A DNA stretch of 64,000 bases, taken from contig JBIOVB010000107.1 of the NCBI GenBank assembly GCA_044867525.1, positions 25,419 through 89,418 of the forward strand, written 5' to 3'. Both the position numbers and the translations under genes were made by a program. Source of the stretch: Acidimicrobiia bacterium (GTDB taxonomy: Bacteria > Actinomycetota > Acidimicrobiia > Spongiisociales > ZC4RG35). The notes under the pieces are model-generated. The model was not told where the DNA came from, ran no database searches, and saw only the letters and a list, made by a program, of their open reading frames with translations. Below are positions 1-21,202 of this stretch, in pieces (within the stretch, counting starts at the first letter, position 1; each line of letters begins with the position of its first letter).

Positions 1-1046
1 GAACGAGTGGCGATCTTCTCCCCGACGGCGAAACCCGGGCCGACGAGCTCCACCGGCTTGGGATTGTGGAAGGCATCCCACAGCGCCTTGCGATCCTCGC
101 CTGAGTCGGCGAACCGCTGGGCCCAACCTGCCCGGGCCACCCGGCCCCTGCCCATGGCGTCCCTGAAGAAGGCATACACGAGGTCGTCCACGAGGAACAT
201 CGGCTCCGTCGGATAGCCCATCGCCTCCTTGGCTAGGCGAACCTCATCTTCACCCAGTGGCGCACCGTGAGCCGCCGCGGTGTCCTGGGCATTCGGGGCC
301 CCATGGGCGATGTGAGTCCGGCAGGAGATCAACGAAGGGCGTTCCTCCTCCGTGAGCGCGGCGTCGATCGCCTCGGCGATCGCCCCCCGATCGTGGCCGT
401 CTACCTCGGCTGTGTGCCAACCCACAGCGTTGAAACGGGCGAGGACGTCCTCGCTGAAGGTGATATCCGTGCTGCCGTCGATGGAGATGTTGTTGTTGTC
501 GTAGAGGTAGATGAGGCGGCCCAGGCCGAGGTGGCCGGCGAGCGAGGCCGCCTCGCTGCTCACACCCTCCATGAGGTCGCCGTCGGACACGAATGCGTAA
601 GTGCGGTGGTCGACCAGGTCGGCGCCGAGACGAGCTCTCAGGTGGCTCTCCGCGATGCCCATCCCCACCGCGGTCGCGAAACCCTGGCCGAGGGGGCCGG
701 TTGTCATCTCGATCCCGAGTCGATGGTCGATCTCGGGATGGCCTGCCGTGTGACTGCCCCACTGCCGGAAGTTGCGCAGGTCGTCGAGGGTGAGTGGGAA
801 GCCGCTGAGATGGAGCAGGGAGTAGAGGAGCATCGATCCATGGCCGTTGGACAGGACGAATCGATCACGATCCGGCCACTCGGGCTCCTCGGGGTCGACG
901 AGCAGATAGCGGCTCCAGAGCACGACTGCGATGTCCGCCATCCCCATCGGCATCCCGGGATGACCACTGTCCGCTCTCTGTACTGCGTCCATGGCCAATG
1001 CCTTTATGGTGTCGACCGCTAATTGCTCGGCCTGGCGCTCCTCCAT
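1..1046 (-). CDS. tkt: Transketolase, N-terminal portion. The gene runs off the window edge at position 1, so it is 3'-truncated here.
   Basis: Minus-strand translation gives [44 protein letters not shown]...[24 protein letters not shown]...TTGPLGQG, the hallmark transketolase TPP-binding motifs. It is absent from the ORF track because there is no stop codon inside the window. Confidence 0.9.
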
Positions 1047-1089: not shown

Positions 1090-1842
1090 TCATGGCCGGC
1101 ACACCTCGCACGCCCGGAAACCGGCTCGCGCCGCCTCACCTGACGACCTGAAGTCGACCACGTTCCCTTCCTTCGAACGGCGGAGCGCCCGGCACGTTGG
1201 GTTGCAGTAGATCCCGGTGGACTTGTTTCCCTGGACCCGGATGTGATGACCGGCGAGGTCTTCCAGGTGTGCCGGATCCGCTCCCTCGTGGGTGAGCAGC
1301 TCCCATTTCACTTCGGGACCACCGAGCGAGTACGCGCCGATGGTCCCATCGGACCGAACCACCCGGTGACAAGGGATGATCAGGGGAATCGGGTTGCGCG
1401 CCATCGTCGAACCCACCGCCCGAGCGGCTCCTGGGGCGTTGGCTTCCCGGGCCAGCCACCCGTAGGGACGGACCTCGCCACGCGGGATCGTGGTGGCGAT
1501 GCGAAGGATCGTCTGCTGAAACGGGGTCACCGATGTCAGGTCGACCGGCAGCTTCCCTGGTGTACCGGCCTCGATTGCATCCGTAATCCGGCTCGACCAG
1601 GCTGCCGGTGCCTCGGCGCGGATCAATGGACGGCCGTGTCGCCGCGCGTGATAGCCCTGCCAGTCCTCAGAGGCCAGAGTCAGAGAGGAGACACCATTGG
1701 GGTTGAAGGTGACGGCCACCTCTCCCACCGGGGACTCGTAGAAGTCGTAGCCGTCGGCGAGGCCCGTGCCCAGAGCCACTCCCTCGCTGATGCCCGCGGG
1801 CAGTGGGCCAATGAGCTGCTCCAGATGATGTTCGATGGTCAT
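1090..1842 (-). CDS. ogt: Methylated-DNA--protein-cysteine methyltransferase (Ogt/MGMT) with a C-terminal Ada-type zinc methyl-acceptor domain
   Basis: PCHRVV active-site motif ([20 protein letters not shown]). The C-terminus [42 protein letters not shown] matches the Ada N-domain Zn site (E. coli TGIFCRPSCRAR...AGFRPCKRCQP). Start trimmed to MTIEHH; the ORF track's longer N-terminus is antisense read-through. Confidence 0.85.
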
Positions 1843-2360
1843 TGTTCTTGCTCCATGATCTCTCGTAGCTTCTCCAAACCGCGATGGATGTCGGCCTTGA
1901 CAGTCCCCTGGGGGCGGCCGGTGGTTTCGGATATCTCCACGATCCCCAACCCGACCACATGGCGGAGCACGACCGCCATGCGTTGATTTCGGTTCAGAGC
2001 GGCGAACCTGGCATCCCAGGCTCGGGCATCGGGCGGATCGGGGGCTTGGTCGGGTTGCTCGTGGCCGTGCATCTCCACGAGGCTGGGCCGGCGGGACCGG
2101 GTCCGCAGATGATTCCTCCCCAGGTTCAAAGCGATGGTCCACATCCACGGCCCGAGGCGGAGGTCGTCGAACCGCTGCCGGTCGAAGTCGCCGAGTGAGC
2201 GATACGCCCGGATGAAGGTCTCCTGGGTCAGGTCTTGCGCCTCCCCGTGATCACCGCACAGCCGGCGCAGGCCCCAGTAGAGCCCGGGCCCCATTTCCTC
2301 GACCAGTCGGGGGAATGCCCGGTCGAGATCGGAGGCGAGCGCGGTGGTCAGCTCATCCAT
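1839..2360 (-). CDS. ECF-family RNA polymerase sigma factor. Its stop overlaps the ogt start by 4 nt (ATGA).
   Basis: Region 2 (AQDLTQETFIRAYRSL) and region 4 (RMAVVLRHVVGLGIVEISETTGRPQGTVKADIHRGLEKLR) motifs. An alternative start lies at 2387. Confidence 0.8.
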   Translation of the reverse strand: MDELTTALASDLDRAFPRLVEEMGPGLYWGLRRLCGDHGEAQDLTQETFIRAYRSLGDFDRQRFDDLRLGPWMWTIALNLGRNHLRTRSRRPSLVEMHGHEQPDQAPDPPDARAWDARFAALNRNQRMAVVLRHVVGLGIVEISETTGRPQGTVKADIHRGLEKLREIMEQEQ

Positions 2361-2423
2361 CCCTATCAGAACACCTACGAATCGCATCCGGTTGCAGGGC
2401 GGGCACCGTACTTAGATACGGGT

Positions 2424-3128
2424 GTGGACGACGCAGAGATCACCGAGGCCCTGCGAGGAGCGGAGTCCGCGGTCCGGTCCGGGGAGTCTCCGGGCCCGGG
2501 CTTCTGGCGTGCAGTCGCCGTAGTGAAGGCCGAGCCCGCCCTGATCGAGGAGCACGCCGATCGAATCGGGGTGATCGACTCCACGGCCTTTCGACAGTGG
2601 GCGTTGGTGACAGTTCCGCTGTGGATCGGGAATCTGGTCATGATCGGGGGGTCCCTGCTCGGTCTGGCGCTGGTCGCGTGGTCCTATTCGCTCTCCGGCA
2701 CCGCCGCGGGGGTTGTCTTCATTCTGGGGTTCGGCGCCCTCCTCGTCACCACCCACAGCCTCGCCCATCTCATAGTGGGGACGATCGTCGGGATCCGATT
2801 CACCCGATGGTTCATCGGTTCGATCCGACGACCCACGCCAGGGGTAAAGGTCGACTACGCCTCCTACCTGCGGACCCCTGCCGCGTCGAGGGCCTGGATG
2901 CACGCCTCCGGGGCGATCTTCACCAAGCTGGTCCCGTTTGCCTTGATCGGGGCCGCCATCGCCGCGGATGTCCCGGCCTGGGCCCTCTGGCTCCTGGTGT
3001 TGGTCGGGATCGCCCAGTTGGTCACCGACTACCTGTGGTCGACCAAGGGGTCAGACTGGAAGAAGTTCAAACGCGAGATGCAATTCGCGGAACGCGGGAC
3101 TGGCGCAGCCTCGGCTCAATCCTCCTGA
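2424..3128 (+). CDS. Integral membrane protein of unknown function, divergent from the ECF sigma gene
   Basis: 4-5 predicted hydrophobic helices (LVTVPLWIGNLVMIGGSLLGLALVAW..., LVPFALIGAAIAADVPAWALWLLVLVGIA). GTG start chosen downstream of the overlap with the sigma gene. The start is uncertain. Confidence 0.45.
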   Translation: MDDAEITEALRGAESAVRSGESPGPGFWRAVAVVKAEPALIEEHADRIGVIDSTAFRQWALVTVPLWIGNLVMIGGSLLGLALVAWSYSLSGTAAGVVFILGFGALLVTTHSLAHLIVGTIVGIRFTRWFIGSIRRPTPGVKVDYASYLRTPAASRAWMHASGAIFTKLVPFALIGAAIAADVPAWALWLLVLVGIAQLVTDYLWSTKGSDWKKFKREMQFAERGTGAASAQSS

Positions 3129-5462: not shown

Positions 5463-5798
5463 CTATGTGGGTTTGACGGTTGTCGTGGTCGTCGTTGTCG
5501 TCCCGTCGTCGACACAGGACTCAGTGACCGGATCCCAAAGTTGATCGTGGTCCCCGGTTTTGTGGTTGACGTGGTGTTCAGGGCTATGGCCTCTGGGCCC
5601 GTCGCTGTGCCACGCTGCGATGTCGATCGTGATCACGACATACGGATTCGTGGCGGAGTCGGTGACATGACAGATCGTGATCTTGTGCCCGTCTTCGAGA
5701 TCGGGAACGGTGCCCGGCTTTGTTGCCATTGCCGGACCGACAACGGTCACCAAAAATACGGTGGTGATCGATGCGAGTGTGATCAGCTTCCGACGCAA
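5463..5798 (-). CDS. Small secreted His-rich protein with a C-terminal poly-Thr tail (unknown function)
   Basis: Signal peptide MRRKLITLASITTVFLVTVVGPAMA. Mature part has 9 His in about 70 aa (ITICHVTD...AAWHSDGPRGHSPEHHVNHKTGDHD). Ends TTTTTTTTVKPT. Confidence 0.5.
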   Translation of the reverse strand: MRRKLITLASITTVFLVTVVGPAMATKPGTVPDLEDGHKITICHVTDSATNPYVVITIDIAAWHSDGPRGHSPEHHVNHKTGDHDQLWDPVTESCVDDGTTTTTTTTVKPT

Positions 5799-10794: not shown

Positions 10795-11669
10795 GCCAGC
10801 TTCCGGTATCGCCAACGGATGAACCAGGCGGCAAAGGCCATGACCACCACGATTGCCACCACCGACACCCAGAGCTCGAATCCGGCGATCTCGGCCGGAT
10901 AGTCCACGGTGTCGCCGAAGAGATGATCTCGGATGATCCTCGGGTGCTGATCGAAGTCGAGCAAGGCGGCGAACCGGGCGCCGGGGAACGTCGCCTCTGC
11001 CACCCTCCCCGCAACACCGCCGCCCGCGATCAGGAGTCCGAGGAAGGACGCGGCTGCGATCCCGGTTCGGTCGATGACCGAGGAGAGGGTGAAGACCACC
11101 GCCCCGTGGAGGCCGATGAACGCAAGAGTCGTCGCCGGGACCTTCCACAGGATGTCGAGGTTGTCACCTAGATAGGGGAGGAAGCCGTCGTCGGAGATCA
11201 GCGCCAGCCCGAGGTGGAGGAGAAGTTGGGGGACGATGTAGATGGCTCCGACCACTGTGGCAAAAGCGAGGGTTTTCGACCCCAGGTAGCCGTCGACGGT
11301 CAGTGGCCGGGAGAAGTAGACAGAGAGCACGCCCTTGGTCCGGTCCGGGATCAGGAGCTGGGGCCCGGCGAGGGCGATGAACAGCAGCGACACCCGCGAG
11401 TAGAAGTCGAAGAGGTCGCCGTATCTGGGCACCTCGGCAACTGCGGCCGGGACGTCGCCGGCGACCCAGTTCACGCCGATGAATACGGCCGCGGCGACCA
11501 CGGCGATCGATATCAGGCTCCAGGGGAAGATCTTCTCCCTGGCTTTGCGACCCAGCCCCAGCACACGGCGGACGCCGTCCTTGAACACCGCCTTGCGCGC
11601 ACCGGTTGGGCCGAGCCGGGGCCCGTCGTAGCTGCGATAGCCGCGGTCGTAGATGACCTGGTCGGTCAT
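10791..11669 (-). CDS. ABC-2 type transporter permease
   Basis: Multi-TM protein, 4-nt overlaps with both flanking ATPase genes. Confidence 0.7.
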   Translation of the reverse strand: MTDQVIYDRGYRSYDGPRLGPTGARKAVFKDGVRRVLGLGRKAREKIFPWSLISIAVVAAAVFIGVNWVAGDVPAAVAEVPRYGDLFDFYSRVSLLFIALAGPQLLIPDRTKGVLSVYFSRPLTVDGYLGSKTLAFATVVGAIYIVPQLLLHLGLALISDDGFLPYLGDNLDILWKVPATTLAFIGLHGAVVFTLSSVIDRTGIAAASFLGLLIAGGGVAGRVAEATFPGARFAALLDFDQHPRIIRDHLFGDTVDYPAEIAGFELWVSVVAIVVVMAFAAWFIRWRYRKLA

Positions 11670-19206: not shown

Positions 19207-19626
19207 ATGACCCGGATCAACATCTCTTCGGGCTCGCCGTACGAGCCAGTGATCGGCTTCAGTCGTGCGGTGCGCATCGGCAACCGGGTTCTGGTCTCCG
19301 GGACGGCTCCGATCTGGCCCGATGGGGAGGTAGATCCCGACCCGGGGGCGCAGGCTCGCCGCTGCCTCGAGATCATCCTCGATGCTCTCTACCAGGCCGG
19401 GGCGAGACCTTCAGACGTCGTCCGCACCCGTGTCTACATCTCCACCCGCGCCATCGCCGACGAAGTGGGCCGTGTCATGGGGGAGGTTTTCGGGACGGTC
19501 CTGCCGGCATCGACGATGATCGTTGTCAGCGGGTTCCTCGACGAGCGATGGGTCGTCGAGATCGAGGCCGAGGCGGAAGTAGGGCATCCTCAGCCTGAGC
19601 CGAAAGTGTCACAGGAGGAAGGCTGA
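19207..19626 (+). CDS. RidA/YjgF/Endoribonuclease L-PSP family protein
   Basis: Size and motifs (RVLVSGT..., RTRVYIST...EVFG) are typical of RidA. Confidence 0.75.
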   Translation: MTRINISSGSPYEPVIGFSRAVRIGNRVLVSGTAPIWPDGEVDPDPGAQARRCLEIILDALYQAGARPSDVVRTRVYISTRAIADEVGRVMGEVFGTVLPASTMIVVSGFLDERWVVEIEAEAEVGHPQPEPKVSQEEG

Positions 19627-20420
19627 CCGGTCTCGTACCCGGTCATGGTCCACTGAGCGCGAGCCTCGGCGGAACCGTGGGTCCAGGTCTCGGGGTTGAT
19701 CTGTCCCGTGGCCTGCCTCTGGATGCGGTCGTCGCCGACCGCGGCGGCAGCCTCGATTGCCTCCTGGATCTCCCCGGGATCGAGCTCCACGTTCGCACCG
19801 CTGCCCTGGGCCACTTGCAGGGTGCCTGCCCAGACACCTGCGAAGCAATCTGCCTGGAGCTCCATGGCGACCGAGAGCTCGTTCGCCTGGTCCGGGCTCT
19901 GCTGTTGCATTCCGCGAACCTCTTCGGAGACGCCAAGCACGGTCTGGATGTGATGACCGAACTCGTGAGCCATCACATAGGCGGGTGCGAAGTCACCCCG
20001 AGCCCCGAAGTCGTCCCGAAGCTGGTTGAAGAAGTCGAAGTCGAGATAGATGTTCTCGTCGAGTGGGCAGTAATGGGGCCCGACTGCTTCGTCTGCACCC
20101 CCACACGCCGAGTTGGTGAACTGCTCGAAGAAGACCAACCCCGGGGCTCGATAGTCGTCCCTCCCTGCCTCCGCGAAGATCTCGGACCACATGAGGTCGA
20201 GATCGATGTAGACCGAGTTCATGTAGTCCCGCATCTCCGCGTAGGGATCCGTCGCCGGGTCGAGGGTGCCTGCGTTGGCAGGGGCAGCTGGAGAGAGGGC
20301 CCCGGTGAGATCCTCGAGCTGCTCGACGGAAGGACCGCCACCGAGGAAAATCACGACCAGGGCCACGACGATCCCGATCACCCCGGCGCCGCCGCCAAGG
20401 GCCGCGCCTCGCCTAGTCAT
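19590..20420 (-). CDS. Membrane-anchored neutral zinc metallopeptidase (YpfJ/Zn_peptidase family)
   Basis: N-terminal TM helix. HEFGHH zinc-binding motif (AYVMAHEFGHHIQ). Confidence 0.7.
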   Translation of the reverse strand: MTRRGAALGGGAGVIGIVVALVVIFLGGGPSVEQLEDLTGALSPAAPANAGTLDPATDPYAEMRDYMNSVYIDLDLMWSEIFAEAGRDDYRAPGLVFFEQFTNSACGGADEAVGPHYCPLDENIYLDFDFFNQLRDDFGARGDFAPAYVMAHEFGHHIQTVLGVSEEVRGMQQQSPDQANELSVAMELQADCFAGVWAGTLQVAQGSGANVELDPGEIQEAIEAAAAVGDDRIQRQATGQINPETWTHGSAEARAQWTMTGYETGQPSSCDTFGSG

Positions 20421-20563
20421 GGTCTGGCCCCGCCGGTCTTCGACGCCCTTGGCCTGGGCTTGTTTCCTGTATCTGACCATTCCGGAGGGCTCCAATGAAA
20501 CCTACCCCGGGTCGGGAACGCGGAACCACCCGATCCGGTTGAATGAGGCCAGGAGGTCGTCAC

Positions 20564-21202
20564 ATGTTCGGATCGAGGAAGACTGCTGTCCCGGAGGCCA
20601 CTCAGGCGCTCCCCGGTCGCGGAACGCCGGTGGCGGTGCCGGCTGCTCATTTCGTCAATGGCAATCCGTTGACCGCGCCATTCCCTGAAGACACCGAGAT
20701 CGCCGTGTTCGGGATGGGATGTTTCTGGGGGGCGGAGCGAAGGTTCTGGCAGATGCCTGGCGTGCACACGACCGCCGCCGGCTATGCCGGTGGCATCACT
20801 CCCAACCCGTCATACGAGGAGGTGTGCACCGGGCGCACCGGGCATTCCGAAGTGGTCATGGTCGTCTACCGGCCTGCCCAGGTCTCCTACGAGGAGTTGC
20901 TGAGGGTCTTTTGGGAGACCCACGACCCCACCCAAGGGATGCGCCAGGGAAACGACATCGGCTCCCAATACCGCTCCGCGATCTACACCACCACCGACGA
21001 GCAACTGGAGGTGGCGAAACGGTCGCTGGACAAGTACCAGGCCGAGTTGACCCCACTCGGCTTTGGGGATATCACGACCGAGATCACCCCCCTCGGGGAG
21101 TTCTACTACGCCGAGGACTATCACCAGCAGTATCTGGGGAAGAACCCGCATGGCTACGACTGTCATGCCAACACAGGCATTGCCTACCCGCTGGAGGGTT
21201 GA
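20564..21202 (+). CDS. msrA: Peptide methionine sulfoxide reductase MsrA
   Basis: GCFWG active-site motif ([18 protein letters not shown]) and GYAGG. Confidence 0.9.

Follow-up and report, generated by a model that had tools for sequence, protein, structure and literature searches.

Could a DNA repair protein that is consumed by the methyl groups it accepts also control an ECF sigma factor? This question is raised by a locus within the 64,000 nucleotides of Acidimicrobiia DNA analysed here (contig JBIOVB010000107.1, hereafter the window), where an ECF sigma gene is directly followed by the gene of an Ogt-type methyltransferase with an Ada-type zinc domain at its C-terminus (Ogt-AdaZn, hereafter the partner). 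E. coli Ada consists of the N-Ada Zn domain, an AraC-type HTH and a C-terminal alkyltransferase, whereas in the window protein the Ogt part comes first and the Zn domain last. Based on domain searches, structural models and the comparison of related loci, we suggest that the sigma factor and its partner probably form a self-regulating, alkylation-responsive ECF sigma/anti-sigma module. The features of the locus are listed in Table 1.

Table 1. Features of the sigma/Ogt-AdaZn locus, with positions numbered within the window
Feature	Position	Strand	Basis or remark
ECF (group 4) sigma gene, 173 aa, starting MDELTT	1839..2360	-	Pfam, NCBIfam, NCBI call
ATGA overlap, sigma stop / partner start	1839..1842	-	Read from sequence
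Predicted ECF-type promoter	2369..2396	-	-35 TGCAACC 2396..2390, 15-nt spacer, -10 GTGTTC 2374..2369
Ogt-AdaZn partner gene, 250 aa	1090..1842	-	Proposed alkylation-sensing anti-sigma factor
N-terminal extension, residues 1-33	1744..1842	-	Candidate sigma-binding element
Alkyltransferase body	1279..1743	-	Putative RNase-like domain residues 34-105, PF01035 domain residues 107-188
Acceptor Cys158 codon	1369..1371	-	Within PCHRV motif
Ada-type Zn(Cys)4 domain, residues 203-250	1093..1236	-	PF02805, 1adn, fold match
C213 codon	1204..1206	-	Equivalent of Ada Cys38 methyl acceptor

The two methyl-acceptor domains of the partner

In the partner, PF01035 is matched at residues 107-188 with an E-value of 1.6e-28 (98.8 bits against a Pfam cut-off of 27), and TIGR00589 of NCBIfam scores 91 bits against a cut-off of 46.4. 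For the alkyltransferase body, the PDB sequence search gave the matches 4bhb and 1sfe, and M. tuberculosis OGT matches residues 34-185, its own residue 6 being paired with residue 34 of the window protein. PF02870, the N-terminal RNase-like domain, found no match in the partner by Pfam. The AlphaFold model is of moderate overall confidence (mean pLDDT 70.9), and residues 151-175 fall below 50. It can be superposed on entire Ogt structures, of which 1sfe ranks first in Foldseek (TM 0.71, target-normalised). Y127, R141, N150, P157-C158-H159-R160 and E186 are invariant across 114 sigma-linked relatives, and P157-C158-H159-R160 is also invariant in 24 close relatives. From the alignment, we take Y127, R141, N150 and E186 to be the counterparts of human Y114, R128, N137 and E172, that is, the conserved Tyr, the Arg finger, the Asn hinge and Glu. 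It should be noted that a longer partner frame of 352 aa, extending upstream to 2148, was rejected, as the added part, which overlaps the sigma gene, is R/P/G-rich and out-of-frame, and M1 is invariant in the relatives.

The C-terminal domain is matched by PF02805 (Ada_Zn_binding) at residues 203-250, covering model positions 18-64 of 65 with an E-value of 2.9e-13 (score 50.1 bits, Pfam cut-off 23). In the PDB sequence search, residues 206-250 are matched by E. coli N-Ada (1adn, E 2.2e-6). C213, C217, C245 and C248 pair with C38, C42, C69 and C72 of Ada in the spacing CxxxC...CxxC, and all four are invariant both in the 24 close relatives and in the 114 distant sigma-linked relatives, every one of which is matched by PF02805. 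The domain is modelled with a local pLDDT of 80-90, and Foldseek matched it to 1u8b, 1zgw, 1wpk and 1adn; superposition on the last three gave an rmsd of 1.7-3.0 A over 48 columns, with 1.7 A and 44% identity for 1zgw. The first helix of PF02805 (model positions 1-17) is unmatched in Pfam, and a helix at residues 190-198 of the structural model takes that place. No AraC/HTH_18 domain was found in the partner by Pfam, and the NCBIfam Ada equivalog scores 94.5 bits, below its cut-off of 345.

The original prediction of a PCHRV acceptor followed by a C-terminal copy of the Ada Zn domain with its four Cys, in reversed domain order and without the AraC HTH, is therefore borne out by the profile searches and by the invariant cysteines. 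Judged by its sequence, the partner is intact as a suicide methyl acceptor and has two predicted sites, Cys158 for O6-alkylguanine and the Zn-thiolate Cys213 for methylphosphotriesters.

The sigma gene, its junction with the partner gene and the promoter

Of the sigma-70 regions, only 2 and 4 occur in the product of the upstream gene (by Pfam, Sigma70_r2 covers residues 28-100 and Sigma70_r4_2 residues 125-174, in the numbering of a 182-aa ORF), and its score for TIGR02937 of NCBIfam is 64 bits, above the cut-off of 42.9. With these regions and 173 aa, it is an ECF (group 4) sigma factor. The longest ORF, of 182 aa, reaches 2387, the position adopted in the original prediction. This start has to be corrected, because the NCBI call is of 173 aa, the relatives are of 172-173 aa and the conserved promoter lies inside the longer ORF; the ATG at 2360 is most likely the true start. 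As had been proposed, the partner gene overlaps the stop of the sigma gene by ATGA, where the partner ATG (1842..1840) overlaps the sigma TGA (1841..1839), and GGAG occurs 8 nt upstream of the partner ATG. Of 128 related sigma/partner pairs, 75 share the 4-nt overlap and another 12 overlap by a single nucleotide. Such an overlap argues for translational coupling of the two genes.

The motif GCAAC-N15-17-GTGTT has only one exact match in the 64 kb, which is the operon promoter (0.16 matches are expected by chance), and the PWM score of this promoter, 27.5, is the highest of the window. Upstream of the sigma gene, the motif occurs in 60 of 93 non-redundant related loci; it is absent from all 92 coding controls, and shuffles gave 1.1 on average. 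Since the sigma ATG is only 8 nt downstream of the -10 element, we infer that the operon mRNA is probably leaderless or nearly so. On this sequence evidence, the sigma and partner genes are predicted to be served by one ECF-type promoter and to be translationally coupled.

Which other genes could be controlled by the same sigma factor? In four related loci (L059, L113, L117 and L122), the same promoter is found ahead of a plain ogt gene, which is itself ahead of the sigma gene. In L059, it also precedes a gene for a PF09859 2OG-Fe(II) 'damaged DNA' oxygenase (AlkB-like, E 6.9e-80), and the promoter with one mismatch lies ahead of a PF09859 oxygenase gene in L064.

Conservation of the pair and the N-terminal extension

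In 121 of the 124 C-terminal-AdaZn Ogt loci with enough upstream DNA, the gene immediately upstream, in the same orientation, is that of an ECF sigma factor; the related loci were selected by similarity to two query proteins and do not represent independent samples. For plain Ogt, the corresponding count is 5 of 17 loci. The pairing spans Acidimicrobiia, Chloroflexota, Dormibacterota, Acidobacteriota, Eremiobacterota and Actinomycetes, so that the gene pair is conserved across several phyla. In addition, the identities of sigma and partner co-vary (Mantel r 0.80, with none of 999 permutations as high).

A further hallmark of the sigma-linked proteins is found at the N-terminus. Plain Ogt proteins have no N-terminal extension, and the alignment of M. 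tuberculosis OGT begins at residue 34 of the window protein; the extension is also missing from the AdaZn-bearing Ogts L057 and L061, which have no sigma gene. In the model, the extension is predicted to be composed of a helix (residues 3-11), a motif beginning LP and a second helix (residues 20-26). Both HxxxCxxC and helices I-III of the ZAS domain are absent in the window protein, as in most of its relatives (short type). P15 is invariant in 60 short-type N-termini, in which the conservation of L7 and G27 reaches 90% or more. It is the region of helices I-III and HxxxCxxC that binds sigma region 4 in solved complexes of anti-sigma factors.

What, then, is the origin of the extension? In 15 of the 114 sigma-linked partners, a PF13490 zf-HC2 domain (HxxxCxxC) stands ahead of the same Ogt-AdaZn body. 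The N-terminal profile of these relatives matches RsiW (5wuq_C, E 1.9e-6), including RsiW 'VEAPADFTANVMAKL', as well as the solved anti-sigma factors DdvA, ChrR, RslA and RsrA. When the window-type N-terminus was compared with the N-termini of the zf-HC2 relatives by hhalign, the two matched with 91% probability (E 1.1e-6, columns 44-75 of 78). Residues 3-33 of the window protein are thus homologous to the last part of the zf-HC2 anti-sigma domain, and the equivalent segment of the zf-HC2 relatives aligns with RsiW residues ~57-71. The extension resembles the post-zinc-finger, helix-IV-like 'AP..L...VL' part of class I anti-sigma domains; the short-type N-terminal profile alone found no match in the PDB. 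We propose residues 1-33 as a putative sigma-binding element.

Because some relatives carry a true anti-sigma domain, the partner is most likely an alkylation sensor that controls the sigma factor. The comparative genomics of the gene pair, the zf-HC2 domain and the promoter thus strongly supports the original idea of a methyl acceptor wired to an ECF sigma factor in place of AraC. The sensor may be the Zn domain, as in the narrower claim, or else the Ogt Cys; the AdaZn domain is absent from five sigma-linked partners and is therefore dispensable for the partnership.

Proposed mechanism, alternatives and known systems

In undamaged cells, the unmethylated partner would hold the sigma factor via its N-terminal helix pair, and the Ogt and/or Zn domain would cover the remainder of sigma. 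Irreversible S-methylation of one or both cysteines would alter or destabilise the partner, or relocate it to DNA. There are precedents for such changes: alkyltransferases become unstable once alkylated, and N-Ada binds DNA more tightly when methylated. The freed sigma factor would transcribe from TGCAACC-N15-GTGTTC promoters, and the output would be more sigma and fresh unmethylated partner, roughly 1:1, together with plain Ogt and the AlkB-like dioxygenase in some organisms. With stoichiometric use of the sensor, the response would be graded by the lesion load and would be off once new partner exceeds the lesions. More tentatively, the partner may be a suicide-enzyme anti-sigma factor, in which a repair protein consumed once per methyl group also inhibits an ECF sigma factor, the lesion load titrates the release of sigma, resynthesis resets the system, and the short form holds region 4 by its Ogt or Zn(Cys)4 domain. 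For example, the anionic Zn-thiolate of the short form could act as a DNA mimic whose charge is lowered by methylation.

Could the partner instead be a bifunctional repair enzyme only, that is, an Ada without HTH, which is the target of the sigma factor and not its regulator? Sigma would then be set elsewhere, e.g., by transcription, an unlinked anti-sigma factor or proteolysis. In its favour, Pfam recognises no anti-sigma domain in the short-type protein, and the sigma-less Ogt-AdaZn proteins L057 and L061 indicate that the fusion can serve as an enzyme by itself. Moreover, several ECF groups are without anti-sigma factors, ECF122 being summarised among those of 'unknown mechanism' (PMC8999054). 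However, this explanation, which we consider rather unlikely, accounts neither for the extension, which is confined to sigma-linked proteins and homologous to the end of an anti-sigma domain, nor for the zf-HC2-bearing relatives. It also leaves unexplained the near-universal place of the partner gene right after the sigma gene with overlapping codons, and the operons that contain a separate plain ogt besides the partner.

Another explanation is that the partner is an anti-sigma factor sensing reactive chemicals directly and not DNA lesions, where the Zn-thiolate or the PCHR Cys would be alkylated or oxidised by methyl halides, electrophiles or oxidants, as in RsrA. Agents of the methyl iodide type can activate Ada by methylating it directly, RsrA is a redox-sensitive zinc anti-sigma factor that senses thiol oxidants, and Zn(Cys)4 and zf-HC2 centres are both present in the family. 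However, the DNA-contacting Y127, R141 and N150 of the alkyltransferase domain are all invariant, and this points to DNA as the substrate. The co-regulated genes (plain ogt and PF09859 oxygenase) are those of DNA repair, and the zf-HC2 centre is missing from most partners. Direct chemical sensing is judged improbable. That adjacency and domain call have arisen by chance or as an annotation artefact is hardly conceivable, and is refuted by two Pfam matches well above the curated cut-offs, the invariant cysteines, the pairing at nearly all of the loci and the conserved promoter. The reading preferred here therefore remains that of an alkylation-responsive sigma/anti-sigma module.

How does such a module compare with known systems? 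It shares with E. coli Ada the same acceptor modules, PF02805 (where C213 is the equivalent of Cys38) and a PF01035 alkyltransferase with PCHR, as well as, in our proposal, the use of a suicide methyl acceptor as the damage sensor that induces its own gene. Unlike Ada, the window protein is without AraC/HTH_18, and the proposed output is the release of an ECF sigma factor, not direct promoter binding. In B. subtilis AdaA/AdaB and M. tuberculosis AdaA-AlkA/Ogt, the Ada modules are split among proteins, and plain Ogt is in the operon of the sensor, as in some relatives here. To our knowledge, the AraC-type HTH is kept on the Zn-domain protein in these systems, and none of them uses a sigma factor.

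As with the class I (ZAS) anti-sigma factors (RsiW-SigW, PDB 5WUQ; ChrR-SigE; RsrA-SigR), the partner gene immediately follows that of the ECF sigma factor and overlaps it, the operon appears to be autoregulated, and the final 'AP..L...VL' segment is retained. Apart from the missing HxxxCxxC and first helices, the difference is that the sensor part of the partner is a cytoplasmic DNA-repair methyltransferase and not a membrane, periplasmic or redox module. In Caulobacter Cada2, Cys methylation of the PF01035 domain switches on the transcription factor, which controls an adaptive response including an AlkB-like dioxygenase (PMC10957082). Activation of a regulator by methylation of the conserved PF01035 Cys is thus a precedent for the proposed module, although Cada2 is itself an HTH transcription factor and lacks both a sigma partner and a C-terminal Zn domain.

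The pairing of sigma and methyltransferase is also less new than the original prediction implied, as it is catalogued as ECF122 (Casas-Pastor et al., 2021). According to the summary of this group, a 6-O-methylguanine DNA methyltransferase is conserved in the neighbourhood and no anti-sigma factor is recognised; the group is listed under 'unknown mechanism', and the example cited is from Cellulomonas (PMC8999054). The window sigma factor is comparable with ECF122 by the shared methyltransferase-neighbour context alone, and the same summary mentions no Ada-Zn domain, zf-HC2 variants or promoter (PMC8999054). A search of the full-text literature for experimental work on the sigma/methyltransferase pairing returned only this mention of ECF122.

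If the more tentative reading of a suicide-enzyme anti-sigma factor is true, it would be a third design of the bacterial adaptive response to alkylation, independent of Ada/AraC and common among Actinomycetota, Chloroflexota, Acidobacteriota and candidate phyla. The proposed module, if true, would define the alkylation response of large, mostly uncultured groups lacking E. coli-type Ada, namely Acidimicrobiia, Chloroflexota, Dormibacterota and many Actinomycetes. It would also introduce a new principle of ECF signalling, in which the anti-sigma factor is irreversibly and covalently consumed by its own repair substrate. The ECF122-type sigma factors of the published summary become directly testable, because a promoter, a segment that may bind sigma, two cysteines as candidate sensors and cultured carriers are now supplied. 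Among these carriers are Streptosporangium carneum VKM Ac-2007 (L060), Nonomuraea sp. NPDC052265 (L049) and Actinokineospora spheciospongiae EG49 (L070), the last of which has a natural variant of the partner lacking AdaZn. Orthogonal ECF sigma/anti-sigma pairs that answer a specific chemical insult would be of interest as synthetic-biology switches.

Several minor observations concern the surroundings of the pair. Neighbour clustering found no further conserved neighbour gene, only lineage-specific synteny (largest cluster, 17 loci). The divergent membrane protein encoded at 2424..3128 on the plus strand, which has no Pfam or NCBIfam match, was dismissed as a universal anti-sigma partner, being restricted to 8 close Acidimicrobiia loci, and Rfam and tRNA scans of the window gave nothing. 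No natural sigma-partner fusion was found with a concatenated query against 5.8 billion proteins, the best 120 matches all being unfused; an apparent fusion, L058, turned out to be a frameshifted assembly whose junction peptide is out-of-frame junk. A canonical Ada of clearly different architecture (L080) is among the distant matches. As for promoters, the motif and PWM scans found no second target promoter in the 64-kb window, and two sites with 2 mismatches, 20515..20544 and, within a coding region, 11582..11611, were rejected as weak. Among the relatives, extra high-scoring promoter sites lie ahead of the gene for an MFS transporter in L122 and that for an alpha/beta hydrolase in L130.

The partner protein and its surroundings

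In the original prediction, the partner of the ECF sigma factor was described as an Ogt with a C-terminal Ada-type zinc domain and without an AraC-type HTH. The profile search proposed for PF01035 and PF02805 gave matches far over the curated Pfam cut-offs, that is, the alkyltransferase DNA-binding/active-site family PF01035 at partner residues 107-188 (E 1.6e-28) and the Ada metal-binding family PF02805 at residues 203-250 (E 2.9e-13), while no AraC-type HTH was found in the partner by Pfam. In the PDB sequence search, M. tuberculosis OGT matches residues 34-185 and E. coli N-Ada matches residues 206-250. The AlphaFold model has a mean pLDDT of 70.9, with 80-90 for the C-terminal domain and poor values for residues 151-175. 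As modelled, the protein is structurally closest to E. coli Ada-C (1sfe), and its C-terminal domain matches N-Ada 1zgw with an rmsd of 1.7 A over 48 columns. C213, C217, C245 and C248 are the counterparts of Ada C38, C42, C69 and C72. The described architecture is thus borne out: the partner belongs to the alkyltransferase family and has a genuine Ada-type Zn domain. In addition, the NCBIfam 'sunset domain' NF051437 matches residues 203-244 (1093..1236, minus strand) weakly (E 0.005, 16.8 bits, cut-off 27), and this sub-threshold match may reflect a relationship between small Cys-rich domains.

The start codon of the partner gene (1842..1840) overlaps the TGA (1841..1839) of the sigma gene, as had been read from the sequence, and the sigma factor carries Sigma70_r2 and r4_2 and matches TIGR02937. 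However, its start, placed at 2387 originally, should be corrected to the ATG at 2360 (173 aa), since the NCBI call is also 173 aa, the relatives have the same length and the conserved promoter lies inside the longer ORF. The neighbouring features are listed in the table. For the divergent membrane protein, whose conservation is confined to 8 close Acidimicrobiia loci, no Pfam or NCBIfam match was found, and the small ORF has no Pfam match. The transketolase gene, a neighbour not conserved beyond close relatives, starts 43 nt past the partner stop with no terminator-like site in the gap; transcription from the ECF promoter may therefore continue into it.

Features of the window discussed in the text
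Feature	Coordinates	Strand	Remark
Transketolase	1..1046	-	cut by the window edge; downstream of the partner gene
Partner gene	1090..1842	-	encodes 250 aa
ECF-type promoter	2396..2369	-	only exact match in 64 kb, 0.16 expected by chance
Multi-pass membrane protein	2424..3128	+	~234 aa; divergent from the sigma gene
Small ORF	5463..5798	-	111 aa; hydrophobic N-terminus, eight-threonine run at the C-terminal end
ECF-promoter-like site	20515..20544	-	TTCAACC-N15-GCGTTC, two mismatches to the motif; short intergenic gap

Conservation of the pair and of the acceptor sites

Is the sigma/partner pair kept together in other genomes, as the original prediction proposed to check? Close relatives, all from named Acidimicrobiia MAGs, are abundant (65-88% identity, 250-252 aa, all with PF01035 and PF02805), and in them the sigma gene likewise overlaps the partner gene by 4 nt. 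Among 1.84 billion cluster representatives searched, the similarity runs on across the Zn domain in most of the best 150 (50% identity clusters), and the architecture is therefore common. We collected two sets of 80 loci each, one from the genomes of GTDB species and one from metagenomes, the latter related to a distant homolog, and scored all their ORFs against the sigma and partner proteins of the window. Among loci with a C-terminal Ada-Zn Ogt and at least 800 nt upstream, which were chosen by similarity to two query proteins and include near-duplicates, a same-strand ECF sigma ORF lies directly upstream in 121 of 124. The first count was 120/125, and the five exceptions were inspected: at L072 a divergent ECF sigma was found by Pfam, and L080 was removed as a canonical Ada with an N-terminal Zn domain and HTH. 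For plain Ogt genes (without the Ada-Zn domain) of the same locus set, a sigma gene is present in 5/17. Sigma and partner genes overlap by 4 nt in 75 of 128 pairs, the divergences of sigma and partner correlate (Mantel r 0.80), and no third conserved gene accompanies them in the fetched loci. As judged from gene order, the two form a conserved two-gene module. At another locus (L109, 1295..3012), it is a hemerythrin-domain gene that stands ahead of the gene for a zf-HC2-Ogt-AdaZn protein, in the place of a sigma gene.

An alignment was made of 114 sigma-linked partners, that is, the window's own and 113 others after removal of identical proteins (mean column identity 45%). Both Pfam families are matched in 114/114. 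All four Zn cysteines are invariant, as are P157-C158-H159-R160, Y127, R141, N150 and E186, which we take to be the residues that serve catalysis and DNA flipping in alkyltransferases. This conservation points to strong selection on both acceptor sites, and neither domain is degenerate.

Anti-sigma ancestry of the N-terminus

Distant homologs of ~300 aa (e.g. P0130, P0134, P0153, P0185 and P0189) carry an N-terminal zf-HC2 domain (PF13490, HxxxCxxC) before the same Ogt-AdaZn body. Such proteins, 15 of the 114 sigma-linked partners, likewise directly follow an ECF sigma gene, and their N-terminal profile matches RsiW in the SigW complex (5wuq_C, E 1.9e-6) in the PDB, as well as DdvA, ChrR, RslA and RsrA. 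The window partner belongs to the commoner short type, with about 30-50 residues ahead of the Ogt fold. This extension is not found in plain Ogt (M. tuberculosis OGT begins at window residue 34) or in the AdaZn-bearing Ogts without sigma of L057 and L061. Its pattern L..L...AP..L...VL...GL.D.Y is conserved, with P15 invariant. In a profile-profile comparison it aligns with the zf-HC2 N-terminus at columns 44-75 out of 78 (91% probability, E 1.1e-6), namely the post-zinc-finger segment, whose RsiW counterpart reads 'VEAPADFTANVMAKL'. The short-type profile alone has no match in the PDB, and the anti-sigma link is therefore transitive, via the zf-HC2 relatives. By these profiles, the partner-specific segment is a homolog of the final part of class I anti-sigma domains.

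Promoter, candidate regulon and a predicted switch

A bipartite ECF-type motif was found upstream of the sigma genes, TGCAACC-N15-GTGTT(C) for the short type and CGAACG-N15-GTGTT for the zf-HC2 type. It occurs in 60/93 non-redundant upstream regions versus 0/92 coding controls and a mean of ~1.1 in shuffles. In the window the sigma ATG lies 8 nt past the -10 element GTGTTC, which suggests that the operon mRNA is leaderless; the short spacing recurs in many relatives, e.g. L001, L002, L013 and both L059 promoters. Searches around the operon gave no sigma-70-like promoter and no intrinsic terminator.

Extra promoter copies were sought by a PWM scan of all loci, at scores with no matches in shuffled sequences. 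In L059, L113, L117 and L122, high-scoring copies precede a plain ogt located ahead of the sigma gene. The fullest module, L059 4527..7336 of a Mycobacteriales MAG, comprises promoter, plain ogt, sigma, Ogt-AdaZn, a second promoter and, just downstream, a PF09859 'Oxygenase-NA' 2OG-Fe(II) oxygenase gene (E 6.9e-80), which is again leaderless. In L064 a promoter with one mismatch precedes an oxygenase-sigma-partner operon, and two further sites lie ahead of the genes for an MFS transporter and a hydrolase. Consequently, the visible candidate targets are mostly DNA-alkylation repair genes. No further target is evident within the 64-kb window. The promoter-like site flanked by a gene for a PF04228 Zn metallopeptidase (19590..20495, minus strand) and by the divergent msrA (20543..21202, plus strand) may belong to another ECF sigma.

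The predicted co-transcription and translational coupling of the pair behind this promoter, two intact suicide methyl-acceptor sites, the partner-specific N-terminal segment, the anti-sigma domains recognized in full in relatives, and the repair genes predicted to share the promoter in some genomes are consistent with an alkylation-sensing sigma/anti-sigma switch. Unmethylated partner would sequester the sigma factor; uptake of methyl groups by C158 (from O6-alkylguanine) and/or by C213 (from methylphosphotriesters) would change or destabilise the partner; the freed sigma would transcribe its own operon and the repair genes, and fresh partner would close the switch again. In Cada2, methylation of the PF01035 cysteine can indeed serve as a transcriptional switch (PMC10957082). 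We regard the model as a whole as reasonably probable. The main rival, in which the partner is only a co-expressed repair enzyme, seems unlikely; in the second rival, which looks improbable, the partner would respond to electrophiles themselves and not to DNA lesions. Genomic context strongly supports the original idea of a methyl sensor wired to a sigma factor, which overall is partly supported and, at the level of biochemistry, a prediction.

The module is a variant of ECF sigma/anti-sigma signalling and of the Ada adaptive response. With its reversed domain order and no HTH, the partner falls outside the Ada/AdaA type of regulator. Its predicted mode of action is that of the anti-sigma factor in a sigma/anti-sigma pair, although the defining zf-HC2 domain is absent from the window protein. 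In a review on non-canonical ECF sigmas (PMC8999054, citing Casas-Pastor et al., 2021), '6-O-methylguanine DNA methyltransferases (ECF122)' figure among the neighbours that are conserved next to ECF groups of unknown mechanism, and therefore the association itself has already been catalogued; by the description of this neighbour, the window sigma is a candidate member of ECF122. Neither a C-terminal Ada-Zn domain in an ECF sigma context nor zf-HC2-Ogt-AdaZn fusions, the promoter or any experiment was found described in the searchable literature.

The module is widespread and directly testable. C158 and C213 are both candidate sensors, because the Ada-Zn domain is absent from five sigma-linked partners (L017, L018, L070, L071 and L085), near which no separately encoded Ada-Zn domain was found; these loci could serve as natural controls for finding the sensing cysteine. 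All five retain the N-terminal extension, in L071 as zf-HC2.
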